This document shows positions 1,342 through 53,415 of a DNA stretch of 64,000 nucleotides, piece after piece; position 1 is the first letter of the stretch; each line of letters opens with the position of its first letter. Location: the IMG/VR virus record IMGVR_UViG_3300017613_001373; one strand, 5' to 3'. Below the pieces are notes generated by a model. That model was not told the origin of the DNA, made no database searches, and saw only the letters and a program-made list of their open reading frames with translations. Source of the stretch: an uncultured virus (IMG/VR IMGVR_UViG_3300017613_001373) (Duplodnaviria > Heunggongvirae > Uroviricota > Caudoviricetes). A program made the translations under genes and the position numbers.

Positions 1342-2715
1342 ATGGATATGCTGACAAAATTTAATGCGTTTTTAGAAGCGCAACAGGTGAAAGCGCAAGT
1401 TGATCCTAATGTTCATGGTCCAAATGGTCTGTTTGGTGCTGTAGGCGGGGAACGTGAGGTTGTTAACACAATGCTAACCCCCAACGGTTTAGCGAGTGTT
1501 CTACCCGCTGTAGGAACAACCACAATGTACCCCTTGTACCCGTATGTTTCTGGTGCTACGGATGCTGGCGCACAGGTAGCAGGTAGCTGTAATGATGCTC
1601 CTGCCGCTGGTAACTTGTTAAGTGCTTATCAAACAGCACAGTTTGGTGTCACACAGTTCCGTACTCGTGAATTGGACATTACAACTGTTGGACAAACCGT
1701 TAATCCCGGTGAAGCTCTTGACCTTCGTATTGCTGATTCTGCCTTAGCTTTAGCTATTGGACAAATCTGGTTAAACATCCCGAACAAAAGTCAAGCAATG
1801 GCATATGGACGTGAAATCCTTGCTCGTTTTGCTGATGTTGGTCGTGCTTTCCAACAATATACAAGTCGTCAAACCTACGTTGGTTCCGGCGCAGGTGTTG
1901 AATTCTTAGGGCTTGAAGGAATCGTTAAAGTTAATCATTTAGATGCACATACTGGTGCGGCTGTGACTTCCCTTGATTCTGATGTTCGTGACTTTGGTGA
2001 TGTTGACATTCTGACACAGGCTGGTGGAGCATCTATTGTTGCAACTGTCATGGATATGTACCGTAACTTGAAGAATAACAGCACTCGGATGGGATTTGGT
2101 GCTACATCGTTTGTTGCTGTAATGCGTCCTCAAATGTTCACTGACCTGACTGATGTGTGGCCTTGCCAAATGGCTACCTATCGCTGTGACTCCCCCAATG
2201 CTTCAACAAGTATTAACATCCAAACGGATCAAAATCTTGTTGCCGCTCAAGAGATGAGAGCGGGAAAATTCTTGTGGGTTGATGGCGACAAACTTCCAGT
2301 TATCGTTGATGACTTCTTGGCTGAGACTGCTTTGGTAACAGTCCCAGTGGTTTACACAAGTGATATTTACATCTTACCGATGAAAACTGGTGATGGTCGC
2401 ACACGCTTGTATTGGGAATATTTTGACTATGACGCTGGAATGAATACCGCTATCTCTGATGGTAACTTAGGTAATCATTTCTCAACTGATCGTGGCATTT
2501 ACGCCGCTGTTCAAAACCCAGTAGCAAACTGGTGTTTGACATATCAGTTCAAAAATCAATTACGCTTACGTTTAGAAACACCTCAATTGGCTGGTCGAAT
2601 CTTCGATGTTGGAGCTTCACACGCTAGTCTATATCGTAGTTCTAACGCAAGTGACGCAGGATATATCTCAAGTGGTGCGGCTGGAGTAACACCACCTAGC
2701 TATACACAACCCTAA
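1342..2715 (+). CDS. major capsid protein
   Basis: 457 aa after protease/scaffold; GGAGG SD at 1329-1333; EFLGLEGIV motif; followed by a strong terminator. Confidence 0.8.
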   Translation: MDMLTKFNAFLEAQQVKAQVDPNVHGPNGLFGAVGGEREVVNTMLTPNGLASVLPAVGTTTMYPLYPYVSGATDAGAQVAGSCNDAPAAGNLLSAYQTAQFGVTQFRTRELDITTVGQTVNPGEALDLRIADSALALAIGQIWLNIPNKSQAMAYGREILARFADVGRAFQQYTSRQTYVGSGAGVEFLGLEGIVKVNHLDAHTGAAVTSLDSDVRDFGDVDILTQAGGASIVATVMDMYRNLKNNSTRMGFGATSFVAVMRPQMFTDLTDVWPCQMATYRCDSPNASTSINIQTDQNLVAAQEMRAGKFLWVDGDKLPVIVDDFLAETALVTVPVVYTSDIYILPMKTGDGRTRLYWEYFDYDAGMNTAISDGNLGNHFSTDRGIYAAVQNPVANWCLTYQFKNQLRLRLETPQLAGRIFDVGASHASLYRSSNASDAGYISSGAAGVTPPSYTQP

Positions 2716-2739
2716 TCAATAAGTAACTGATTAAAATAG

Positions 2740-2780
2740 AAAAAAAAAAAGGATTATCATTATGATAATCCTTTTTTTTT
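2740..2780 (+). terminator. intrinsic terminator, bidirectional
   Basis: A-tract, GGATTATCAT-T-ATGATAATCC, T-tract. Confidence 0.85.
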
Positions 2781-2803
2781 CACATTAGTCTATAATAATA
2801 TCT

Positions 2804-2905
2804 ATGAATGAACCAGAAGAGAAACTAGAAGAAGAAGAAATTGAAGTTCATATCGGTGATGGAGTTCCACCACCAATTTACATACAACCTTGGAGAACGA
2901 TATGA
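2804..2905 (+). CDS. small acidic protein, 33 aa, probably leaderless
   Basis: TATAAT 2791-2796 is 7 nt before ATG; TGA overlaps the next ATG (ATGA). Confidence 0.5.
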   Translation: MNEPEEKLEEEEIEVHIGDGVPPPIYIQPWRTI

Positions 2906-3081
2906 CAGATAGAGTAATAGGCGGTTCAGCTATACCAGTCCATGTTATCAACGGGAGTGGTGATACAGCGAGTAGACCAGCAACCCCAACAATAGGACAG
3001 ACTTACTTTGATACCACACTTGGTATACCAGTTTGGTATGATGGTACAAACTGGATTAATGCAATGGGTACAATTGTGTAG
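2902..3081 (+). CDS. small head-fibre/decoration-like protein
   Basis: GGAGA SD; GxTAxRP..GQxYFDTTLGxPVWYDGTNW motif typical of phage fibre modules. Confidence 0.6.
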   Translation: MTDRVIGGSAIPVHVINGSGDTASRPATPTIGQTYFDTTLGIPVWYDGTNWINAMGTIV

Positions 3082-3083
3082 TG

Positions 3084-3542
3084 TTAACGCAATGTTTCCA
3101 TAACAGCTAGACTATCAGCGATGTGTTCTTGTTTTGCTTTGGTTTTAGGCCAATTCAATTCGGGATATTTTCGCATTCCCCATTCTATGATTTCATCCTT
3201 TGTTGCATTTTTCCCAACAATATTTTTAACCTGATTTGGAGAAACAGTTGTAAGATTTTCCAACCCCGCTAGGATACCGATAATTACGCCACTAGCCATT
3301 GCCGCACGGGAACTTTGTGATCCTGTTGGAAGTTCTGCGATGATAATATCTTTATCTTGTATAAAATTTTGCAATCCTTTGTGTATTTTCCTAGATGCAC
3401 GAAGGTCATCTAACCCGACTTTACCCTTACCTTTTTTTGTTTGTATAATGTCAAGATTATATGGAATTGGTATGCCGTCAACCAGATTGAATTCTACAAT
3501 CCCAATGTTTCTAAATGCTGGATCTAATGCTAAACCCCTCAT
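3084..3542 (-). CDS. RuvC-like Holliday junction resolvase
   Basis: LALDP, IAE and HIADS acidic catalytic motifs. Confidence 0.85.
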   Translation of the reverse strand: MRGLALDPAFRNIGIVEFNLVDGIPIPYNLDIIQTKKGKGKVGLDDLRASRKIHKGLQNFIQDKDIIIAELPTGSQSSRAAMASGVIIGILAGLENLTTVSPNQVKNIVGKNATKDEIIEWGMRKYPELNWPKTKAKQEHIADSLAVMETLR

Positions 3543-4102
3543 ATAGCACCACCCACATGATAATTATACATATCAATATACAATTCATTACCAAGTTGAA
3601 TATCCTCTAATGTCACACCTAATTTTACAATTTTACCACCGATCATAATTCCTACTGGGACTGTGATTTCTGGATTTATATCATCCTCTTTCCAAGGTGA
3701 TGCTGATAACAATGTATCTACTAATCTATTGTAAAAGTGGGTAGTAAGCAAATGACACGCTGATAAATAATCAATCAGTGTGCCATTTTTGTGTTTGTAC
3801 TTATATAGGTCTTGTAGTGCTAAGTTCACCATTGCACTAGCGAATTCTGTCAACGGTGAACGAAATTTATTAATGGGAACATATTCTTCATTTGTTTGCC
3901 CATTTGCTTTTCGTACTGGTAATCCTTTATTACGAAAAGCATTTGTCAATTGACTTCGAGATACACTTATACCATATTCTTCTTGTATCCATACAGTTGT
4001 CTTATCCAACGATTTAATCTCGTTGATATACTTGTGATTAATTTTTTCTAGGTCATTTGCGCCTAGAGCATCATTCCATTTCATATAGTGTAAAATATAC
4101 AC
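3539..4102 (-). CDS. hypothetical protein, possible N-terminal HTH
   Basis: WIQEEYGISVSRSQL is HTH-like; coupled to the resolvase gene. Confidence 0.5.
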   Translation of the reverse strand: MYILHYMKWNDALGANDLEKINHKYINEIKSLDKTTVWIQEEYGISVSRSQLTNAFRNKGLPVRKANGQTNEEYVPINKFRSPLTEFASAMVNLALQDLYKYKHKNGTLIDYLSACHLLTTHFYNRLVDTLLSASPWKEDDINPEITVPVGIMIGGKIVKLGVTLEDIQLGNELYIDMYNYHVGGAI

Positions 4103-4118
4103 TATATGTCAATGTTTG

Positions 4119-5420
4119 TCAAAACTGGGCTACTTTGGGCATATCTGTATAACTACCATTTGATGGATTCCACATTAGTTCAAACATGCCAACACCAATA
4201 TTACGACCTTTTGCGACATTAATTTCTGTTATATTCCCTCGTTCAGATTCGGGATTATAAACGCTATCACGATAAAGCAACCAGATATTATCAGCACTTT
4301 GCTCCACATAACTTGACTCTTTTAGGTCGCTTTTCAAGGGGCGCTTATCTTGTCGGTTCGCAAAACTACGATTTAATTGTGCCGCTAGTAAAATATGCAT
4401 ACCAGTAGACTTACCTAGTTCAGCAAGAGCTTGTGATGCTAACCCAATTGCCAATGTCCGATCTTTGGCATATTTCTCATACTGAATCAATTGCAAGTAA
4501 TCAACAGTGAATAATTTAGCACCGTTCATCGCCATTTTACGACCAATTGCTAAAATGCGCTCAAGTGATGTGTTTGATGTACCATAAATATTCCATAAGT
4601 CACGATGATCTTTCATTCGTTTTACAGCATTGAAATAATCATGTGTCATAGTTGGACTATTGTGATACTCCCCTTTACGGATTTGGGTCATGTCTAAAGA
4701 AGAATATCGCGCAATCTGTCTTTGTACGATTTGTTCTTCATCCATTTCTAAAATAACACTACCGACTTTATTACCATTATCAAGTGCATACGAGATCATG
4801 TCAGACAATATAGCAGTTTTACCAACACTGGTATCTGCCGCAATAACGGTCATGTCTTTTCGGAACAGTCCACCAAACCGTTCATTAAATTCAGAAAATG
4901 GCGTTTCAATTAACCGTGAGGACATCGGCATATCTTTTTCTGCCTCAGACTTTGCAACGGTAGCATCTAATAACGCATCAAATGATGAATCAATTAGATC
5001 AACATCACCATTGAAATCAATATTAGACAGCTTTGTTTCAATTTCAAGGGGTGCAGATGTTGGATCGGATATTGAATCTGCCATTTCTTGGATTTCTAAA
5101 CCAAGTTCTTTAAGCGAGTTACGGATTGCTTCATCACGAACGGTTTTGACATGTAGTGGTATATTTTTCTCTTCATATTTGAAGTTGAAAAACCGTTGAA
5201 CGTATTTTGTATCCAATCCTGAATACTTACTAATTAACAGCGGTGTCGGTACAGATAACTCGTCTATACATTGTTGAAACGCTACGTAAATGGCTTGTGT
5301 TTGTGTTTTCCCTTCATCACTATTAAACTCTTTTGGATCTAGCGTTATCTCAGAATGTAGTTCTGGATATTTTAACAGGTGTGCAACGATGGCAATCTGT
5401 TCTTGGATTGTATTAATCAT
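4119..5420 (-). CDS. dnaB: DnaB-like replicative helicase
   Basis: AADTSVGKT Walker A, VDYLQL, AQLNR, DLKESS.EQSAD, KGRN. Confidence 0.93.
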   Translation of the reverse strand: MINTIQEQIAIVAHLLKYPELHSEITLDPKEFNSDEGKTQTQAIYVAFQQCIDELSVPTPLLISKYSGLDTKYVQRFFNFKYEEKNIPLHVKTVRDEAIRNSLKELGLEIQEMADSISDPTSAPLEIETKLSNIDFNGDVDLIDSSFDALLDATVAKSEAEKDMPMSSRLIETPFSEFNERFGGLFRKDMTVIAADTSVGKTAILSDMISYALDNGNKVGSVILEMDEEQIVQRQIARYSSLDMTQIRKGEYHNSPTMTHDYFNAVKRMKDHRDLWNIYGTSNTSLERILAIGRKMAMNGAKLFTVDYLQLIQYEKYAKDRTLAIGLASQALAELGKSTGMHILLAAQLNRSFANRQDKRPLKSDLKESSYVEQSADNIWLLYRDSVYNPESERGNITEINVAKGRNIGVGMFELMWNPSNGSYTDMPKVAQF

Positions 5421-5859
5421 TAATTAGTTCTCCCATATACTCAGCAAAGTATTTGTCATACGCTCTTTTAAATGTCGCTCTATCGGCCATCAATGTCTTT
5501 GACGCTCCTAAGTATTTCCAACCTCCCACAGCATTGATAGCTTTTTTGGTAATAGGATTCAAAGTGTCTGGCATACTTGGATATGCACCAAATTTTGCAG
5601 ACAGTTCTCCCCATGCAGTTTCAGCATCAGTAATGCCTAATGCTTTAGCTTTTTCAACTTGTACTAAGCCAATTAGAGTAGACCAATCAAAAAAGGGTGT
5701 ATTAGGCATCATGAAATACCGATTAAGAGCTTTGAGTGATGATTCTCCATGTTGTTCTAAAATGGTCAATAAGGTACGCATTGTATCCATGTTCAACTCG
5801 TGTTTCTTTGTATTCAACACAAGTTTAAATTGTTTCTTTATTGCTGAATCGTCTGTCAT
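5413..5859 (-). CDS. replicative helicase loader/inhibitor-like protein (G39P/DUF6475-like)
   Basis: AxxAW...AINAVGGWxxL...DRAxFxxAY pattern; overlaps the dnaB start. Confidence 0.6.
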   Translation of the reverse strand: MTDDSAIKKQFKLVLNTKKHELNMDTMRTLLTILEQHGESSLKALNRYFMMPNTPFFDWSTLIGLVQVEKAKALGITDAETAWGELSAKFGAYPSMPDTLNPITKKAINAVGGWKYLGASKTLMADRATFKRAYDKYFAEYMGELIND

Positions 5860-6032
5860 TGTATTTATAATCTCCTTATATGTTTAATTACTGAGAATGA
5901 GTATATCCTATCTAAATATTTTGTAAATAAGATATTAGTACTATAGAAAACGACCATCCCAAATGTAGAATGATCGTCTTTTCGTTTCTATAAATTTTTC
6001 GTTTCTATAAATTGTAAAATTTTACAATTTGA

Positions 6033-6374
6033 TTACCCTTCTTTATTTAATGTTTGCCAACCTTTCCCTGACGCTACAAAGTCTTTTAAAATCCGTACCG
6101 CACGATCTCGATAAACAGTACTGTTTGCAGACTCCTTACCCTCATTCAACAATGTCTGTACTGAAATTGCCTCATTCTTAACAGTTGTCCCGACAAGAAA
6201 TTGAAGGAAGCGCAATGCGCCTTCTTCTAAATGTACACGAGGTACGATGTAATTCAATGCTTCCGTAAAATCATCAAATGTTTGTAACACTTTATGATCA
6301 GGGTATGTCCCAACAACTTGCTGATATACCCCTTTATTATTAAAAATACGATAATTAACGGTTGTCACCATCAC
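6033..6374 (-). CDS. hypothetical protein
   Basis: GGAGG SD; co-oriented in operon. Confidence 0.65.
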   Translation of the reverse strand: MMVTTVNYRIFNNKGVYQQVVGTYPDHKVLQTFDDFTEALNYIVPRVHLEEGALRFLQFLVGTTVKNEAISVQTLLNEGKESANSTVYRDRAVRILKDFVASGKGWQTLNKEG

Positions 6375-12297: not shown

Positions 12298-12597
12298 CTA
12301 TTCTCTAATAACAATTTCACCATTTACAACTTCACCATCCCATGTTGAGAAATCACATGAGACACCATATTGACTAGCATCAACAAAACCGTGATGATAC
12401 ACGATACACGCCATGCCGTCCACTACTATATATTCAAAATCCGATTCTTGTATTTCTGTAATTGTTACTTCACCTGACGAATCTGAATTGTCTGATAACC
12501 CATCAGCGATTAATGTAGCACTGGCGATTACAACAATTGCGACCAATACTAACACTAAAGCATACTCTACCAAACCTTGCCCTTTTTGATTTTTCAT
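12298..12597 (-). CDS. Flp/type IVb pilin-like N-terminus fused to a small soluble domain
   Basis: KG|QGLVEYALVLVLVAIVVI prepilin cleavage site and Flp EY motif. Confidence 0.75.
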   Translation of the reverse strand: MKNQKGQGLVEYALVLVLVAIVVIASATLIADGLSDNSDSSGEVTITEIQESDFEYIVVDGMACIVYHHGFVDASQYGVSCDFSTWDGEVVNGEIVIRE

Positions 12598-13175: not shown

Positions 13176-14501
13176 TTATTTCCCACCCATAATTACTACA
13201 ACAGGTGTCATAACAGCTACCTTATCAACTAATTCTGATTGAGCATTCATAACATCATCAATGTTCTTGTATGCGAATGGATTTTCATCCTCCTCAACAC
13301 CAATCCATGTGACATCTAAATAATCTTTTGCTTGCTGTACCCGTACAGGATCATAGTTTTGTTTAGCTTTTGTGCGTGATGATACACGACCAGCACCGTG
13401 AGAAGATGACCATAATCCATCAGGATTACCCAACCCCTCGACAATGTAACTATGTGTTCCTGCTGAACCAGGTATTAATGATGCTTGACCTAATCCTGCT
13501 GGTGATGCGCCTTTACGATGGATCACCGTTCCGTCATCTTGAACCCATGCGAAATTATGATGATTTTCTAAACGTACACCTCCGTCTAAACCGGCATATT
13601 GTAAAAAGTGATCATGAATTAAATAATGATTAGCTTGCGCGTAATCACCCATTAGATTCATGACTTCCAAGTATTCTGCCCCATCCTCAGATTGTGTGTC
13701 TAACCATTCATATCCTGTAGGGATATTATATCCACCTGTTTGACGATGTGCTAGTTTCATATAATGTTGTGCCATTTTATAACCAGTACCACGACTACCT
13801 GAATGTGTTAAAAGTACTAACACTTCTTCATCAGCCTCATATGGGAAAAATTCAGTCCATCCCAAACTTTTTGCCGTCATAATGTTTGCAAAATGGTTTC
13901 CGCTTCCGCTAGAACCCAACTGATCCCATGCCTTATCTTTCAAGTTGCTCAAATGCGGTAATTCATCCCACAATGAATCATACATCACATCATGATCACG
14001 ATTCTTATATGGCGTATCACCATATTGAGCCTTGCCTAATCCAAAATGTGTAACATCAACCAACATGTTAGCAAATTGATCACGATCTGATTTGTCTTTG
14101 ATTAATTCAGTTCCACCTAAAACAGTCAATGTCATTCGACAAGCAATATCATATCCAACCATTGAGGGTGAAACAGCATGATCTAATTGTGCAACCCCAC
14201 CAATGTTCAAGGCGTACCCCAAGTGAGCATCAGGCATTACCGCCCCACGTACAGCAACAGGTAATCGCATTGCAATATCCATTTGATCCAATGCGGTTTG
14301 ATCAATATCCCCATAAACACTATACGGAGCGGCTTCATCATTCATTTGAGGACGTTGAATTGGTAAACCAAATTCTGCTTCAACAGCATTTAATACATCA
14401 ACCCCTTGCTCCAACCTAGCGGCGTATTGTGCAATTACTCCAAAGTTATCTACCGTATGTCCGTTATACCCTGCGTCTCGTAAAATTTCGTGAGTTTTCA
14501 T
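13176..14501 (-). CDS. rtcB: RtcB-family RNA ligase
   Basis: MPDAHLG, VGYDIAC, GSGNHF, HSGSRG, HHN, HRKGA, SHGAGR, AYK. Confidence 0.95.
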   Translation of the reverse strand: MKTHEILRDAGYNGHTVDNFGVIAQYAARLEQGVDVLNAVEAEFGLPIQRPQMNDEAAPYSVYGDIDQTALDQMDIAMRLPVAVRGAVMPDAHLGYALNIGGVAQLDHAVSPSMVGYDIACRMTLTVLGGTELIKDKSDRDQFANMLVDVTHFGLGKAQYGDTPYKNRDHDVMYDSLWDELPHLSNLKDKAWDQLGSSGSGNHFANIMTAKSLGWTEFFPYEADEEVLVLLTHSGSRGTGYKMAQHYMKLAHRQTGGYNIPTGYEWLDTQSEDGAEYLEVMNLMGDYAQANHYLIHDHFLQYAGLDGGVRLENHHNFAWVQDDGTVIHRKGASPAGLGQASLIPGSAGTHSYIVEGLGNPDGLWSSSHGAGRVSSRTKAKQNYDPVRVQQAKDYLDVTWIGVEEDENPFAYKNIDDVMNAQSELVDKVAVMTPVVVIMGGK

Positions 14502-14586: not shown

Positions 14587-14602
14587 TTATTCTAACCGTG
14601 AA

Positions 14603-14759
14603 TTATAATTTAGTTATTATTAAAATTAAATTCTTAGGAGGAATAAATTATGGCGTTTGTAAGTCCCGAACAAGGGAAAGTGGAAATGAGATTCGACTCA
14701 ACTGGTGCTTTATTTGGTCGATCCAATAGTGTTGCCGAAATCGAAGTTAGCCCTGCTGG
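14603..14759 (+). repeat. 157-bp direct repeat copy 1 (-10 box, RBS, first 37 codons)
   Basis: matches 15645-15801 with 7 mismatches. Confidence 0.95.
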
Positions 14760-15598: not shown

Positions 15599-15636
15599 AA
15601 AAAGAGATTGATTACCAATGATCAATCTCTTTTTTT
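15599..15636 (+). terminator. intrinsic terminator
   Basis: AAGAGATTGAT...ATCAATCTCTT followed by a T-tract. Confidence 0.8.
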
Positions 15637-15644
15637 ACCATAGT

Positions 15645-15801
15645 TTATAATTTAGTTATTATTAAAATTAAATTCTTAGGAGGAATAAATTATGGCTTTT
15701 GTAAACCCTGAACAGGGCAAAGTAGAAATGAGATTCGACTCAACTGGTGCTTTATTTGGTCGATCCAATAGTGTTGCCGAAATCGAAGTTAGCCCTGCTG
15801 G
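15645..15801 (+). repeat. 157-bp direct repeat copy 2
   Basis: see copy 1. Confidence 0.95.
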
Positions 15802-16510: not shown

Positions 16511-16923
16511 TGAAAACAATAACACTAGCAGAGATTCTAGCAAGTAATGAACAGCACTGTATAAACCCTCTTACTGGAATTAGTGAAAGTGGTAATCAAA
16601 CAGATAAGAAAACGCTTCTTGATGGTTGGTCAGGGACTATCATCGAGGCGTTTTCACTTCTTGACGATTGGGAACCAGAAAGGCTTATCGGAGTTATATC
16701 GTGGAATGATTGGTTATCAAATGACGATTTTATTATTATTTGTGAAGCAATTAAACAAGAACTTGATAGCAGTTATATGGAAAGAGTAGAATTACTGATT
16801 GGTTATATAGAAAATAATTATAGTGTTAAACAATCAGTTCTACTTATTTTACAAATGGCAAAATCTACTATTGGAAAAGCGAAAACATTAGATATAATAT
16901 TATCATGTTTTCCCAAATATTGA
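16510..16923 (+). CDS. hypothetical protein coupled to paralog B
   Basis: TAATG overlap. Confidence 0.6.
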   Translation: MKTITLAEILASNEQHCINPLTGISESGNQTDKKTLLDGWSGTIIEAFSLLDDWEPERLIGVISWNDWLSNDDFIIICEAIKQELDSSYMERVELLIGYIENNYSVKQSVLLILQMAKSTIGKAKTLDIILSCFPKY

Positions 16924-17143
16924 AAGATCACTTAATTTAAACTTAGTTATAACTTTAACATCATCAACCATTTCAAAGGATTTAATAGTACCACCAACTA
17001 ACACCACCATCTTATCTGACTCAAACCCGCCTTGGAGTATAGCTGAAAACGTCTCGTTATCTATCATGTTATTTATAGCATCTTCCGTATATACGATCTA
17101 CTTCCCCTGATTTTAGTACAATCGCGGAGAACTTCTTACGCAT
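16903..17143 (-). pseudogene. frameshifted small gene
   Basis: MRKKFSAIVLKSGEVDR continues in another frame as IVYTEDAINNMID...; the ATG overlaps the end of the upstream gene. Confidence 0.4.
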
Positions 17144-17534
17144 CAGATTCATACTCATTAATATCTGTTTCGAGGTCTTGTACACGTTCCTCTAACTCAT
17201 AAATCTCATCATCTTTCTCTTGAATATCATTTTTTAAATCATGAATAGTGTTTTCTCTGTCTTCAAGCGTATCTTCTAATTCAATGATCAGTTCGTCTTG
17301 TTCTGTCGCATTGTTGACATCCTCAACATGTTCATCTTCTAATTCATCAATACACTCCAAAAGTGCAAAGAATATATCCTCGGTGACATCGGATAATAGC
17401 CACCCATCGCGTGTTACTCGATCTCGTACTTGATTATATATGTTCATAATTTCTCCTTTTCCGACAAATCGTTTTGCATGTTCTTCTGAGTCAAAAATAA
17501 TTCTTCGACCATCTACAAATACTGTGCAACCCAT
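17136..17534 (-). CDS. acidic coiled-coil protein (start may be MNIYNQ)
   Basis: heptad-rich acidic C-terminus; AGGAGA before the internal ATG. Confidence 0.6.
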   Translation of the reverse strand: MGCTVFVDGRRIIFDSEEHAKRFVGKGEIMNIYNQVRDRVTRDGWLLSDVTEDIFFALLECIDELEDEHVEDVNNATEQDELIIELEDTLEDRENTIHDLKNDIQEKDDEIYELEERVQDLETDINEYESDA

Positions 17535-17782
17535 TATTTTACATCCATTATTGTTCCATCACAATCTGGACAAACAACCTTGATTACACGATCTAATACT
17601 CTATCGACCACATTGATTTCACGCTTAAACGGTGTTCCCAATGCCCTATCGCGTAAATCAGAATTGCAATGAGGACATGTTAAGATACCAACATACATAT
17701 TCCAAAAATCGCCATACATTCTTTGCATATCGGCGGCATCATAGCCTCGTTTTGCCATAAATGGTGTGATCATTTTACCCAC
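17534..17782 (-). CDS. zinc-ribbon protein
   Basis: CPHC...CPDC. Confidence 0.65.
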   Translation of the reverse strand: MGKMITPFMAKRGYDAADMQRMYGDFWNMYVGILTCPHCNSDLRDRALGTPFKREINVVDRVLDRVIKVVCPDCDGTIMDVK

Positions 17783-18042
17783 TAATTACCCACTAAGTGA
17801 TCCAATACCGCGTCATTGTCTGCTGATGTTAAGGTGTTGTTGATAGCATCGAGCAAGTGCTGGTTGAAAGGGTGATTCACGTAGAATGCCGCTTTGCCAA
17901 TGTATAACATTTGATGTTGGTATTGATAGACAACATCATATCCATTAAAACTTGTATAGCAATCCAATTCTCTCAGCCATTTCATATAACCCTCTTTTGT
18001 ATCCCTAATCATTGTATTGATTAAGATTTGCAATCTGTTCAT
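17782..18042 (-). CDS. hypothetical protein (N-terminal T-x-x-G-x-x-x-W motif)
   Basis: GGAGA SD; coupled. Confidence 0.6.
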   Translation of the reverse strand: MNRLQILINTMIRDTKEGYMKWLRELDCYTSFNGYDVVYQYQHQMLYIGKAAFYVNHPFNQHLLDAINNTLTSADNDAVLDHLVGN

Positions 18043-18045
18043 GAT

Positions 18046-18267
18046 TTATCTCCAATTAACAAAGTCACGTTCTTGTTCACATTTGACTACCAATTCCTCT
18101 AAACGATTTGTTTGCCCCATGTGTTCATAGAAAGCGATTAGCAATGCCATCTTTCCATTGAATGTGGGGAACTCGTCAGACATGAAACCTAAGTGAAAAA
18201 TCATTGTCTTGATTTCATTCATGGAAAATTTCTCATTCATTTGTTTCAAAAACATTGTTTGATCCAT
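18046..18267 (-). CDS. standalone effector-associated domain (EAD7-like, Death-like helical bundle)
   Basis: FSxxEIKTMxFxLG..DEFP..GK...RLEEL...ER..VNW matches the EAD7 pattern as recalled; AAGGGAGA SD. Confidence 0.7.
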   Translation of the reverse strand: MDQTMFLKQMNEKFSMNEIKTMIFHLGFMSDEFPTFNGKMALLIAFYEHMGQTNRLEELVVKCEQERDFVNWR

Positions 18268-18301
18268 TATATTTTCTCCCTTATTAAAATAATATGCTAC
18301 A

Positions 18302-18346
18302 ACTATAAGACCTATTGTAAAAAGTTACAATAGGTCTTTTGTACTA
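18302..18346 (-). promoter_or_regulatory. promoter with perfect 14-bp-arm palindrome
   Basis: AAGACCTATTGTAA-AAAG-TTACAATAGGTCTT (18307-18338); TTGTAA-17-TATAGT. Confidence 0.7.
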
Positions 18347-21667: not shown

Positions 21668-21844
21668 ATGGATAAAAAACGAACTGAAATAGTTCTTGAA
21701 TATGGTTTTTGGATGAAGCTGAAATGGATTGCTTTATCACAAGGCATGAGCCTAGCAGGACTGTTTAGAAAAGTATTAACACAATATATAGAGGACTATG
21801 AGCGAACGAAAGAGACGAATACTAAAACAAGACGAGAGAGTTAG
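21668..21844 (+). CDS. ribbon-helix-helix (CopG-like) regulator, 58 aa
   Basis: MDKKRTEIVL-EYGFWMKLKWIALSQGMSLAGLFRKVLTQYI; SD upstream; absent from the ORF track. Confidence 0.7.
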   Translation: MDKKRTEIVLEYGFWMKLKWIALSQGMSLAGLFRKVLTQYIEDYERTKETNTKTRRES

Positions 21845-22172: not shown

Positions 22173-23234
22173 ATGGCAGAACAAAGAGGGAGTGCGAGTC
22201 GTGGGAGTCGTGGAAGTGGTTCACGATTCTACAATGAAAACGTAAATGTAGCAGGTAAAGATTTATCAATAGCCACTATTATACTAGGTGGTTTAACACT
22301 GTTTGGATTGTTTGGTGGCACATTTGCTACTGGATTAATGTCTAGGTATGGCTTTGTACTTGCCCTGTTTGCTGGTGCAGTATGGTTAGCATGGTCTGTT
22401 AGTCGTGATGGTGTATTCAGCCTCATGAACCAAATCTTCACATTTGTTTTAGCATTGTTAGCAATTATTTGGATTTTCTTCTCGTTTATCCCACATCAAT
22501 TGAATAATGTTAATACAAACGAATGGGAGCAGGTTTTTACAAACTTCAATACTAACGTGCAGACCACATCACCGTTTGTCAATCAACCTATTACTGGCGT
22601 GACATTGCCGAATTTCGATAATGCGATTACCACAAATGATCCTAATATTGGTGGTGGGAGTCCGTCATATACGTCTCAACCAGATGTAGATGTACATGAA
22701 CAACCTGTTTATACACAACAACCAAATGAAGCCAACAATGTTCCAGCAGTATCACAACCAGCAACACCATCACCAGCAACACCATCACCCACAGCGGGAT
22801 TGGAACGACAATTGGAAAACGCAATTATGGAAAATGACGGTGTGATGGTGATGGAATTAACTGGTCAAATTTTGACAATCAATCCTGACCATGCCAATGC
22901 GAAAGTTTGGAATAGTCAAGTAATTTCAGAAAAAATACATGTTGATTCTTTACGGAATATGCCACAACCAACAGGTGATTTTATGGCAGGGGTTGACAGT
23001 AATAGTCTGCAAAAAGCGATAGACCTATTGGGCAGTAATGGTGAGAAACCAAACGGGTATCAATACATTGTACTAGACAATGGTGCAAAAACGAGTAGTG
23101 TTGGTTGTAATGAAACAGCGATTCTTGAATTACAAAGCGGATTGTATGCAGGACAAAGTTTTACAACCCAACGCTGTTTGGTATCTAGTATTGCTGGTGG
23201 TTCTGAAAATGGAAAAGTCTTTACAGTACGGTAA
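22173..23234 (+). CDS. membrane protein (about 3 TM, Pro/Thr/Gln linker, soluble domain)
   Basis: hydrophobic segments near the N-terminus; AAGGAG SD. Confidence 0.75.
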   Translation: MAEQRGSASRGSRGSGSRFYNENVNVAGKDLSIATIILGGLTLFGLFGGTFATGLMSRYGFVLALFAGAVWLAWSVSRDGVFSLMNQIFTFVLALLAIIWIFFSFIPHQLNNVNTNEWEQVFTNFNTNVQTTSPFVNQPITGVTLPNFDNAITTNDPNIGGGSPSYTSQPDVDVHEQPVYTQQPNEANNVPAVSQPATPSPATPSPTAGLERQLENAIMENDGVMVMELTGQILTINPDHANAKVWNSQVISEKIHVDSLRNMPQPTGDFMAGVDSNSLQKAIDLLGSNGEKPNGYQYIVLDNGAKTSSVGCNETAILELQSGLYAGQSFTTQRCLVSSIAGGSENGKVFTVR

Positions 23235-23249
23235 TAAATAGGAGTTATC

Positions 23250-24776
23250 ATGAGTGAAAACATATTACAAACATTACAGAGTTGGACAGATGAACCCGAT
23301 GAAAAAGTACGCATTGGTGCGATGGCTGGTCTAGCCACAATTGTATATGGTGCTAAATCTGGTTTTGATGCTGTTGCAAGTGTATATCCTGACGACGCTC
23401 TAGGAATTGTTTTAGGTACATCTATTGTAGTAGCAGGAGCAGGTGCAGTAGGCTTATATACATATGGTAAAAAGGCTGGACAACGTATGGAGACTGAGAC
23501 ACCAGCGCAAACACCTCCTGTAATTGACCCAGAAGAAATTCGAGAAGTTGTGCAACGTAGTGAACCTGTTGTGGCAGATGAGGTTGCAGAAGTTGTTCAA
23601 GATACCATAAATGTTAACACCGATGCTTTCGATGAACTGATGAGCGATTTAGCAAACAAGGCATATCATATATTCATTCCCTCAACATCTGGTAGCGGTA
23701 AGACCACATTAATCAACCACTTCTTAAATACACAACTAGGTGAAAAAGATTCTTATTTGGTGTTAGATGGTAAAATCGAGGGTGATGATTCTTTGAAATA
23801 TGCCGATAGTAAATATACAGTAAACGATCCTAAAAAATACAGTGCTGTTCTAAACCGTGTCGTTGCACAAATGGAGAAGAGACAAGCAAAAAGTATGTAT
23901 GAGTATCCGAAACTACATGTAGTGATTGATGAGAGTTCATTGTTAGATCAGGAAAGTATGGATTTGGTTGTTGAATTGTTGTCTCGTTCCCGTAGTGCGA
24001 ATATAAAGGTCATATTAATGACGCAAAGTGTTTCGGCAAAAATAAATGGGACTGAGGGAATTACTGACTTATTGAATCGTATTACAATTTTGAATTTAGG
24101 ATTCGATGATAGAAATGATCGTGTTGTTTCCTATGCTCGGATTGCAAGCGGTAAAATTAAAAACATTGGCCGTGAGATCAAAGTGCCAAAACTCGATGCA
24201 CCTTGGAATGTTGATCTCGAATTTGAGGATGATACTGACAGTTTTGATTTTGGCGATGATATGGTAAAAAATATTGATACATCTGTTACAACACCCATTA
24301 TTGATGTTGTTTCAGAAACAACACTTATTCGAGATGAATCTGATAATGAACAGATTACAAAGATTACTGAAATGTTATCGGAATTAGTTGGTGCGGATTT
24401 GACAAGTGTTGTTGAAGAAAGTCGTAGAAAAGTTGTTGAAATGGATCATGAAGAACTACCTCCTATGTTACGAGAAACATCAGAAGAGGATAAGAATAAG
24501 TATGATTTTCAACCGCAAAAAAACAATGATAAAGAAAATCCATCATTGCGTTTAACATGTAAAATAATGCGTAATGTAGATTTATCGGATTCAGGTTATC
24601 GTATTGGAAAAAACATTGTGACCAATGGCGATCTAAACACGATTAAATTCTTAAATAAATGGTTCAACGGTAATGACCCAGATGGAAATCATCGACGTGA
24701 AATTTGTGAATTAACATTCGACAAATACTCTCCGTATCATTTCAAGGTTATCAGTTCTGTATTAGGGGATAAATAA
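23250..24776 (+). CDS. membrane-anchored FtsK/HerA-superfamily ATPase
   Basis: two N-terminal hydrophobic segments, SGSGKTT, VLDGK, VVIDE, RSANIKVILMTQ. Confidence 0.8.
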   Translation: MSENILQTLQSWTDEPDEKVRIGAMAGLATIVYGAKSGFDAVASVYPDDALGIVLGTSIVVAGAGAVGLYTYGKKAGQRMETETPAQTPPVIDPEEIREVVQRSEPVVADEVAEVVQDTINVNTDAFDELMSDLANKAYHIFIPSTSGSGKTTLINHFLNTQLGEKDSYLVLDGKIEGDDSLKYADSKYTVNDPKKYSAVLNRVVAQMEKRQAKSMYEYPKLHVVIDESSLLDQESMDLVVELLSRSRSANIKVILMTQSVSAKINGTEGITDLLNRITILNLGFDDRNDRVVSYARIASGKIKNIGREIKVPKLDAPWNVDLEFEDDTDSFDFGDDMVKNIDTSVTTPIIDVVSETTLIRDESDNEQITKITEMLSELVGADLTSVVEESRRKVVEMDHEELPPMLRETSEEDKNKYDFQPQKNNDKENPSLRLTCKIMRNVDLSDSGYRIGKNIVTNGDLNTIKFLNKWFNGNDPDGNHRREICELTFDKYSPYHFKVISSVLGDK

Positions 24777-24778
24777 TT

Positions 24779-25057
24779 ATGAACAATGTTTTAGAGAAAC
24801 TTACATCCCCGTTAGTTGCGCTAGGATGGATCGGTGTATGTATCATAGCAATAATTGTCATAAACATTCTAATAGTAACGAATACGATTTTTATCTCACT
24901 TCGTGACAGTTTATGGTTGAATCATAATATATCAGCAATATGGGCTTTTTTAGTATTCATAGTATTAATTCCTGTATTCGTTATCACTATCTGGTTCATC
25001 ATTAACGGGATATGGATTCTTGCAAATAAAGGATTAAGCAAACTCCAAGATTGGTAA
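24779..25057 (+). CDS. 2-TM membrane protein
   Basis: two long hydrophobic helices. Confidence 0.7.
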   Translation: MNNVLEKLTSPLVALGWIGVCIIAIIVINILIVTNTIFISLRDSLWLNHNISAIWAFLVFIVLIPVFVITIWFIINGIWILANKGLSKLQDW

Positions 25058-25104
25058 GAATTAGTATTGTAAAAAATTACAAAGTCTCCTATAATTAATC
25101 TCTT

Positions 25105-26148
25105 ATGAAATTGATTATAGAGAGACTTTTTTTGCTTTATGCTGATATAATGGAAACAATGGGTTGGATACTCACTGTTTTAATTTATGCTGGAACGGCA
25201 TACATCGGACTCTCTCTAATTAGCGGTGATGTAATGATGCCAACACCATTTACCACAATTGATATGAACAACCAAACCACTTCAAATTATCAACAAGATT
25301 TGAACTATTCTGATTTAATAGGTATACCATTAATGATGTCTCCATATGATCCCGCTTTAGGTGGTACAAACTGTCAAGCACCGTGTTCTATCACTGCGTC
25401 TGGTGAATTAGTGTCAGATTGGAAAGATAATGGAGGTATCGCTTGTCCTCAAAGTTTTCCAGATTTTACAAAGATTGAAATTGAAGGAATTATTTATACA
25501 TGTATTGATCATGGGGGATGGATTCAACATATTCAAAAGGGTGAAAATGATCCAGCTTTAGCAAATCATTATGGTGTTGATGAATATGCCGCAAAAGAAG
25601 AACATATTTGGATTGATGTATTATCTTCCGCAAGTACACATGGTACACAATATTATTATACAGAACTTGTATATGACTGGCGTATTGTTACAGAGATTTC
25701 AGAAACATCGTTTACACAACCTGTACAAAAAGCTGTACAACAAACATCATCTTGCCCTATTCAAAAACCGTATGAATACGGAGGGTTAACACAAGAATTA
25801 CATGGGAATCAGGCGTTAGATTACAAAGCAGGTGAAGGAATTAGTGTCCTATCTCCAATATCAGGCACAGTAATACAAAATGAAATTACTGTTTCGGATA
25901 ATACCACACTTGTGATTGAAAATGATTGTTATATGGTGAAAATGTATCATGGTGATTGGACAGCGGAAGTAGGTAGCCAAATTATTATTGGACAACCAGT
26001 AGGAACAGAGAGTAATAAAGGCTACACGTTTACAAATAACGGTAACACTTTTTGTGGCACAGGTTCTAATTGTGGTTATCATACACATTTGGAAGTTTTT
26101 GACAAAGAATTAAACATATATATTGACCCTCGTGAACGATATGAATGA
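25105..26148 (+). CDS. membrane-anchored cell-wall hydrolase (3D/DPBB-like domain plus M23 peptidase)
   Basis: TASG...IACP...CIDHGG; HxxxxxD and HTH zinc motifs. Confidence 0.75.
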   Translation: MKLIIERLFLLYADIMETMGWILTVLIYAGTAYIGLSLISGDVMMPTPFTTIDMNNQTTSNYQQDLNYSDLIGIPLMMSPYDPALGGTNCQAPCSITASGELVSDWKDNGGIACPQSFPDFTKIEIEGIIYTCIDHGGWIQHIQKGENDPALANHYGVDEYAAKEEHIWIDVLSSASTHGTQYYYTELVYDWRIVTEISETSFTQPVQKAVQQTSSCPIQKPYEYGGLTQELHGNQALDYKAGEGISVLSPISGTVIQNEITVSDNTTLVIENDCYMVKMYHGDWTAEVGSQIIIGQPVGTESNKGYTFTNNGNTFCGTGSNCGYHTHLEVFDKELNIYIDPRERYE

Positions 26149-27244
26149 GAACAACGAAGAAATTGAAACATTATCTGAAATCCTTATAAAAACACTGTTT
26201 GATGCTTTACATGTCCTAATCCATCTCATTAAACGTGTTGGTACACATTTGATCATGTCTGGTTTAATGATATTGATTATGTCTACATTGACTGAGAATA
26301 GAGTGTATCTAGGTGCTTTCGTAGGTTTTGGAGACACTGATCAGAATAGTAATCAAATCATTAATCCACCAGTTTCACAATCAAACATACCAAATTCTGG
26401 TAATATTATTGAAAATATGTATGGGCATAAAATAGCACCATTAAATTCTATACATTACATTGCAGGTAGTCAAACAAAAGGTAGCGGGACAGGTCTTATC
26501 AGAGAAGGTCAAATGTTTGACTTTTATTACTACGGACGGGATTATGTGAATGTGTGTGGCGCAGATGTGTATGCACCATTTGATGCAGTGCTATCTTATC
26601 AGTCAAACATCGGTGGAGGAACACCACAATTAACATTTACCAGCATGGATGGATCAATAAAGGTTCACAGTATGCATCTAAACGCTATTCAAACAAGTGG
26701 TTATGTGTCACAGGGAGAGTTAGTCGGATATGTTGATAAATTAGGTGCATATAGTGGTGGAGTTTGTCATGGACATGATTCATTGTATGTCAATGGAAAA
26801 TTACAAGATATTGAAACGTATCAGTTGGAAATGAGCGAATCAGTGCCAGAAACAACTATGTCCAATCAACCACCATATCAAATGCCATACAAAGATTGGT
26901 ATGGAATAGGGGATGCTGAGTTACATGGTCGTGACAATCTGAAAGGTATTGATGTTTCAGGAGGATGTGATACGCCATTATACGCAATACTTAGCGGAGT
27001 AGTAACAGAAGTAGGTATGGAAACAGTACTCTCAAATGGGAAACGAAATAGTATTTTAACCATAACAGGTGATGATGGTATACACACCGCTACAATCCTT
27101 CATGGTAATTATACACCCACATTGAATCAACATTTAAACATAGGTGATCCAGTTGGTACAGAAGGAACAATTGGTAACAGTACAGCTTGCCATAGTCATA
27201 TTATATTAAAAGAAAACGGTGTTGAAATAAATATCTTACCTTAG
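26141..27244 (+). CDS. membrane-anchored tandem M23 peptidase
   Basis: two M23-like repeats (GRDY..CGADVYAP...CHGH and GID..CDTPLYA...CHSH). Confidence 0.75.
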   Translation: MNENNEEIETLSEILIKTLFDALHVLIHLIKRVGTHLIMSGLMILIMSTLTENRVYLGAFVGFGDTDQNSNQIINPPVSQSNIPNSGNIIENMYGHKIAPLNSIHYIAGSQTKGSGTGLIREGQMFDFYYYGRDYVNVCGADVYAPFDAVLSYQSNIGGGTPQLTFTSMDGSIKVHSMHLNAIQTSGYVSQGELVGYVDKLGAYSGGVCHGHDSLYVNGKLQDIETYQLEMSESVPETTMSNQPPYQMPYKDWYGIGDAELHGRDNLKGIDVSGGCDTPLYAILSGVVTEVGMETVLSNGKRNSILTITGDDGIHTATILHGNYTPTLNQHLNIGDPVGTEGTIGNSTACHSHIILKENGVEINILP

Positions 27245-52626: not shown

Positions 52627-53415
52627 CTATTTTATAAGTTCAGCGGTTAATCCTTTATACTTCTCTGATACATCGCCTAAATAACTATTCCAATCAGCTA
52701 TTTGTGGTTTTACTTGGGGTCTAATTGTATGTAAATCCATTCGATGTAATGTGTCGTCCTCGTGTGTGTACTGTTCCACACTGTTGAAGTTGTGATTGAA
52801 ATAAGGTTTTTGTAAAAAATTATAAATTCCAATCATAGTCTCTCTAGGGTTCAATGTTAATTTTTCATATTCAACAAAATGTAAATTATCACGCCAACCA
52901 CGATGAATAGCATCTCTTACTCTGTTAAATGCCATTCCGACTAATTGATCGCCTTGTATCCACATGTCACAACGTCCTTCAATTGTTTGAAATTTAAGTG
53001 GATGACTTTGTTCTTGTCCTATTAAATTGGTAACACTGCTATTACGCCATACCTTCTCTAGTGAACTCAATACGCCACGAATATCACGGACAGGTACTAG
53101 AACCTTTGGTGTTGTGAAATTTGATGCTAACTCAAGATATTGTAACCAACCTCGTGATTTGTCAAAGACTACAGGGCGATTAATATGTGAATAATATCCT
53201 TCTACAATTCCTGAAAACACTTGTTTCTTTACTTGATCACTTTCAGGCATTGTTTTATGCTCAATTAAAGTATCCCAATAAAGTCGTGTATTAGCTAATA
53301 CGTCTAATAAACCCGATGTAGCACTTGGATGGAATTCTGGGTTCTGTGCTAACAAATTTTGTATTAGTGTTGAACCAGCTCTAGGAAAACCCGATGTTAA
53401 AATTATTTCTTTCAT
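52627..53415 (-). CDS. sulfotransferase (Sulfotransfer_3-like)
   Basis: SGFPRAGSTL 5'-PSB loop, DKSR, VRD...LSS 3'-PB, YEKL..NP. Confidence 0.85.
   Translation of the reverse strand: MKEIILTSGFPRAGSTLIQNLLAQNPEFHPSATSGLLDVLANTRLYWDTLIEHKTMPESDQVKKQVFSGIVEGYYSHINRPVVFDKSRGWLQYLELASNFTTPKVLVPVRDIRGVLSSLEKVWRNSSVTNLIGQEQSHPLKFQTIEGRCDMWIQGDQLVGMAFNRVRDAIHRGWRDNLHFVEYEKLTLNPRETMIGIYNFLQKPYFNHNFNSVEQYTHEDDTLHRMDLHTIRPQVKPQIADWNSYLGDVSEKYKGLTAELIK

Follow-up and report, generated by a model that had tools for sequence, protein, structure and literature searches.

Why would a phage carry a docking domain with nothing attached to it? The question is raised by a 73-aa ORF (P0001; 18046..18267, minus strand, ATG start) in a 64-kb stretch of viral DNA, referred to below as the window, which is part of a 133-kb contig and has a GC content of about 36%. 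The first-pass annotation had assigned the ORF to the effector-associated domain family EAD7 (PF19960; Kaur et al. 2020, PMC7159879; 2021, PMC8195603) and had read its product as a decoy against host immune signaling. The window reads as phage DNA, with genes for a DnaB helicase, a RuvC-like resolvase, a phrog_1252 polymerase, an SbcD-like nuclease, and a MazG-like protein, further genes of the RtcB, HNH, M23 peptidase, and phrog_1735 (E 7e-249) types, and one tRNA; no gene within the 64 kb could be securely called as terminase or capsid.

The family assignment was borne out by Pfam, phmmer, and Atlas. In a Pfam scan the sole match of the 73-aa protein was to EAD7 (E 1.5e-4, profile positions 2–61/62), with a score of 21.9 bits, below the curated cut-off of 32 bits, and its ortholog P0002 gave no Pfam EAD7 match at E 0.001. 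A phmmer search of 1.84 billion representatives returned 18 matches, namely a 72-aa protein that is 74% identical and 17 distant proteins, in 14 of which EAD7 scored above the cut-off (the other three were repeat artefacts). A profile search of proteins of 37–128 aa gave 163 matches; among the 120 matches listed all are annotated as EAD7, and a second 72-aa ortholog was found there. An EAD7 profile built without the three orthologs scores them at 56.6 (the 73-aa protein), 45.0, and 43.4 bits; hhalign of the 73-aa protein against EAD7 gave 94.6% (E 6.9e-8); and Atlas assigned EAD7 both from features (0.93) and by structure match (TM 0.82–0.93, EAD7 in all 10 rows). Judged by its sequence, the 73-aa protein is a divergent EAD7 homolog that lies below curated Pfam membership. 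It resembles PF19960 over its whole length, is all-helical, and keeps F14, E18, F24, L26, L59, R67, and W72, and it differs in being phage-encoded and unfused, in having no second copy in the window, in its sub-cut-off score, and in carrying L-L-I-A in place of K-A-R-E.

The structure model (pLDDT 90) is compact, entirely α-helical, and without catalytic features, with helices at residues 3–13, 16–25, 39–52, and 56–66 (four helices of at least four residues, plus a helical turn of three) and a non-helical stretch at residues 67–73. The modeled bundle superposes on Death-fold domains (DD/CARD/DED/PYD), in agreement with the Death-like fold proposed earlier, and the model suggests a reduced version of the six-helix Death fold.

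The EAD7 domain makes up the whole of the protein, which has no fused core component or effector. The frame is open for just 19 codons above the ATG and holds no earlier start, and the upstream gene, on the same strand, stops at 18344, so that an in-frame fusion with it is impossible. All three orthologs (73, 72, and 72 aa; 74% identical) are domain-only, share both ends, and contain no stops. EAD7 is otherwise normally fused, as the first-pass annotation had held: the 79 metagenome loci that we analyzed (the best 80 of 273 matches, picked by the canonical motif) contained 82 EAD7 frames, 64 complete and 18 open at an end, and none of the 64 complete frames was domain-only. The partners in the 40 complete frames that were scanned included caspase, CHAT, trypsin, TIR, NB-ARC, nSTAND, TPR, kinase, FGS, and Mrr, and many frames had no other Pfam match. 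On contigs of at least 10 kb, 5 of 15 other short EAD7 matches (P0035, P0086, P0109, P0118, and P0139) had at most 25 extra residues per side, and two rows of the Kaur source tables mark a cellular gene as EAD7 alone, its length not given. The domain-only architecture is thus rare but not unique to phages.

Is the 73-aa protein simply a copy of a host adaptor? We compared the three orthologs with 222 other EAD7 domains. The orthologs keep F14, E18, T21, F24, L26, K39, R55, L59, R67, and W72, and they lose D-Y after helix 2, R52, P68, and, above all, the helix-4 motif K-A-R-E (83–89% conserved in the other domains; 87–94% for K-A-R-E-L), which is replaced in all three by L-L-I-A-F/L. The helix-4 register is uncertain by three residues, and R and E are lost in both registers. 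They have 7–8 basic residues, where the family median is 11 (5th percentile 8). Loss of all of K, R, and E was seen in only 7 of the 222 other domains (4/32 in the phmmer set, 0/113 in the word-search set, 1/70 in the metagenome loci, and 2/7 in the viral set). Because the most conserved EAD7 helix-4 surface motif is gone, the 73-aa protein, on the evidence of its residues, is not a plain copy of a host adaptor; the loss fits a capping decoy and also a changed partner. In both trees the orthologs sit on a long branch, grouped with cellular-type domains whose motif is degenerate (P0007, which is a CHAT protease fusion, P0012, P0019, and P0005) and separated from the viral EAD7s linked to lysis. 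Support is weak (FastTree 0.71–0.85), these neighbors had themselves been selected as query matches, and the second tree holds 33 of the 225 domains. One host-type locus, L084, pairs a canonical with a motif-less EAD7, a single case: an EAD7-TPR-ATPase-like gene with the canonical helix-4 motif (1908–4790, plus strand) adjoins an ATPase-like-EAD7 gene that has none (4786–6300, plus strand). This gene pair offers a compact test system for EAD7 pairing.

The ORF has a good Shine–Dalgarno sequence, as had been noted (AAGGGAG, 18276..18282, minus strand, with the ATG 8 nt further on), and it directly follows one copy of a promoter that recurs in the phage. This predicted σ70-type promoter (18302..18330, minus strand), identified by consensus match, consists of a −35 box TTGTAA (18330–18325), a 17-nt spacer, and a −10 box TATAGT (18307–18302). 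A perfect inverted repeat with 14-bp arms and a 4-nt loop (18307..18338) lies over the −35 box, and the TAGTAC box common to the promoter family (18341..18346, minus strand) supplies with its TAG the stop codon of the upstream gene. In the family layout a TAG(T/G)AC box is followed by CTATTGTAA-N4-TTACAA and this in turn by a −10 box. The pattern TAGKAC-N7/8-[ACT]TATTGT occurs 10 times in the window, compared with a mean of 0.03 and a maximum of 1 in 200 block shuffles. The claim that this copy has the most perfect palindrome also stands, in that its 14-bp arms are the longest (the next are of 9 bp) among the 17 motif entries examined, three sites being entered on both strands; the window has longer palindromes of terminator-like form at 2742 (19 bp) and 27244 (16 bp). 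The inverted repeat is a candidate operator for a phage regulator, and it could possibly also form a hairpin that ends the upstream transcript (−19.6 kcal/mol for the RNA hairpin, a value without a shuffle control). Family copies precede RtcB, small accessory genes, an M23 gene, and replication-type genes, and none was found at the heads of long structural-looking runs. Their positions would suit an early or middle regulon with its operator over the −35 box. We also note that the promoter/operator family (TAG(T/G)AC ... TTGTAA-N4-TTACAA plus a −10 box) numbers about 14 sites between 6010 and 63565, and that an RHH-like ORF (21668–21844) is one candidate for its regulator.

Downstream in the predicted unit, all on the minus strand, are an 86-aa gene to which the family scan assigned no family (17782..18042), a gene for an 82-aa zinc-ribbon-like protein (17534..17782; weak zinc-ribbon matches, all below cut-off), a gene for an acidic 132-aa coiled-coil protein (17136..17534; coiled-coil matches only, below cut-off), and a 54-aa ORF that possibly closes the unit (16903..17067). 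The Shine–Dalgarno sequence of the 86-aa gene overlaps the EAD7 gene at its final two codons, and the two genes are probably translationally coupled. Genes upstream lie on the same strand, and the place of the EAD7 gene as first in its unit would depend on the predicted promoter being active.

The likely host is suggested by where EAD7 occurs. Of the 14 Atlas rows with EAD7-bearing clusters, 13 have Chloroflexota as their most frequent phylum, Chloroflexi account for 9 of 10 EAD7 rows in two supplementary tables of Kaur et al., and named EAD7 matches, among the matches listed, are mostly from Anaerolineae or Chloroflexi. These counts uphold the link drawn earlier between EAD7 and defense-type proteins of Chloroflexota, and the host is probably an Anaerolineae-type member of that phylum. 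The earlier interpretation is supported in part, namely for the EAD7 homology, the Death-like fold, the stand-alone form, the phage context, and the Chloroflexota link. Homotypic EAD coupling had been called established; the source paper (PMC7159879) gives it as a prediction, and no experimental test of EAD7 coupling was found in the papers searched.

Death-fold domains assemble via complementary faces, and adaptor-only proteins cap such assemblies or compete with them. We give an about even chance to the reading that the 73-aa protein is made early and serves the phage as a decoy or cap for EAD7-coupled defense complexes of a Chloroflexota host: a docking module that normally sits on immune sensors or suicide enzymes is here alone and so may act as a jamming decoy. 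The phage would make the protein early, judging from a promoter family that serves accessory and replication genes, and the protein would fold as a small, unfused EAD7 domain of Death-like form. Host EAD7 is predicted to link sensors of the STAND/TPR type with effectors (caspase-like, trypsin, TIR, and nuclease), and the phage protein may dock on it via the retained helix-2 surface. Once docked it would be unable to extend the EAD7 assembly, because the helix-4 K/R/E surface is gone and no effector is carried; it would therefore cap or out-compete effector recruitment and block cell suicide. Helix 2 and helix 4 would then be the two binding faces.

Other viral EAD7 carriers bear on a different reading, in which the protein is an adaptor that binds EAD7 partners to recruit, tune, or trigger them, be they host effectors (for timed lysis or to keep rival phages out) or another EAD7 of the phage encoded outside the window. 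A survey of EAD-only phage genes had been proposed; our motif scans of viral contigs found seven other EAD7 carriers, none of them domain-only, although such scans would overlook copies that have diverged as far as the query (pattern recall 0–14 of 38 in the divergent set). In five of the seven, EAD7 is fused to a coiled coil, in some with a membrane helix as well, in proteins of 108–177 aa (L001 5989–6414, L004 5665–6198, L036 3868–4194, L047 3944–4441, and L048 3773–4192), and a gene for a C39- or M23-type peptidase lies nearby in three of these five (L001, L036, and L048). Both features would suit a hijacking role, as would the prediction of paired copies of the same EAD under the EAD principle as set out in PMC7159879, given a window that covers 64 of 133 kb. 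However, the six frames of the window hold no second EAD7 (next best 7.3 bits), the gene has an early-type promoter and small accessory genes for neighbors and is not in a lysis block, and both trees, with weak support, separate it from the lysis-linked viral EAD7s. The coiled-coil proteins share with the 73-aa protein a phage-carried EAD7 without an enzymatic effector but differ from it in their mostly near-canonical helix-4 motif and in lying often near peptidase genes, and they are not its closest relatives in either tree. We regard a hijacking adaptor as unlikely. The short families P0014, P0068, and P0085 resemble these coiled-coil EAD7 proteins of lysis regions, which we did not find in print, and Atlas includes an EAD7 cluster (123 aa) with 57% viral members.

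In the remaining two carriers EAD7 lies within a terminase-large-subunit-like ORF. One ORF, of 588 aa (L003 776–2542, plus strand), carries the domain at residues ~427–498, and a near-identical contig has it in the same ORF (L002 3–959). The terminase match of L003 is weak (E 5e-4); the ORF lies upstream of a head protease gene on a high-GC phage contig, and its EAD7 is without the helix-4 motif. Terminase is described as a known trigger of STAND sensors (PMC13581612), and a terminase-inserted EAD7 could thus shield in cis.

The 73-aa protein could instead be a captured EAD7 fold put to new use, its new hydrophobic helix-4 face binding a non-EAD partner such as itself, the coupled 86-aa neighbor, or a host protein unrelated to immunity. 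The change from K-A-R-E to L-L-I-A in three of three orthologs, the low count of basic residues, the long branch to the ortholog clade, and the apparent translational coupling to the 86-aa gene all point in this direction. Against it, E18, T21, F24, and L26 of helix 2, together with R55, R67, and W72, stay family-like, and cellular-type EAD7s altered in a similar way remain joined to a CHAT protease or an ATPase-like protein, so that we consider repurposing, too, improbable. Finally, a functionless relic, the drifting remnant of one end of a captured fusion gene, would account for the sub-cut-off Pfam score and the many changed conserved residues, and the short EAD7-only ORFs of databases, which often lie on short contigs, may be fragments, but a relic is very unlikely for a gene with its own predicted promoter and Shine–Dalgarno sequence, three versions 74% identical with the same ends and no stops, and a confident compact model.

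The decoy reading has a published precedent. pCARD, a CARD-only protein of Acinetobacter phage 133, was shown to inhibit a gasdermin system and so to weaken gasdermin defense (Wein et al., PMC10312443), which makes the decoy idea more plausible and less novel. Compared by its description, pCARD is likewise a small phage protein with one Death-fold domain for which a dominant-negative logic has been proposed; it differs in being a 141-aa gasdermin inhibitor encoded beside rIIAB, whereas the 73-aa protein belongs to the EAD7 branch and is a putative decoy. Animal Death-fold decoys (vFLIP MC159, pyrin-only, and CARD-only proteins) are eukaryotic, have six helices, and are about 90 aa long, and at 4–20% identity to the 73-aa protein they offer an analogy of fold and logic only. 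No EAD7-only phage gene was found in the literature searched, the scope of which left out most subscription journals, and the main text of the EVADES preprint has no match for CARD, death, or EAD, though its supplements could list such proteins. A phage CARD-only inhibitor being already published, an EAD7-only phage protein would add a second Death-fold branch.

Multicellular bacteria have EAD-coupled systems, predicted to be immune and suicide networks that parallel animal Death-domain signaling, and an adaptor-only phage protein is a ready probe of EAD7 systems. Should the 73-aa protein block such a system, a single experiment would show an antiphage role, EAD7-EAD7 binding, and the binding face, and the CARD-only decoy strategy would extend to a second Death-fold branch. 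More tentatively, and with doubts that outweigh our confidence, we suggest that EAD7s are two-faced, polymerizing Death-fold adaptors and that Chloroflexota phages attack the network in at least three independent ways: by an early one-faced cap, by EAD7 tips on lysis-region proteins, and by EAD7 inserted in a terminase-like protein, where it could shield a classic immune trigger. On this view the gene for the 73-aa protein would encode the first known inhibitor of an EAD system and would argue indirectly that EAD-wired systems act against phages.

Finally, we note several other features of the window. A phage-encoded Flp-type pilin-like protein with a C-terminal extension (12298–12597, minus strand; similar forms of 96–99 aa exist) possibly alters host pili. 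The RtcB RNA ligase gene (13176–14501, minus strand), directly downstream of a copy of the EAD7-gene promoter family, could plausibly counter RNA-cleaving defenses. A 170-nt duplication, 92% identical (14590–14759 and 15632–15801, plus strand), takes in, for each of two adjacent genes with different C-termini, the upstream region and about the first 36 codons. A block at 22173–27244 (plus strand), encoding a membrane protein, an FtsK/TraD-like ATPase (weak matches), and two membrane-anchored M23 peptidase-like proteins, is reminiscent of a conjugation or cell-wall module, and a sulfotransferase gene (52627–53415, minus strand) adjoins putative lysis and tail genes.
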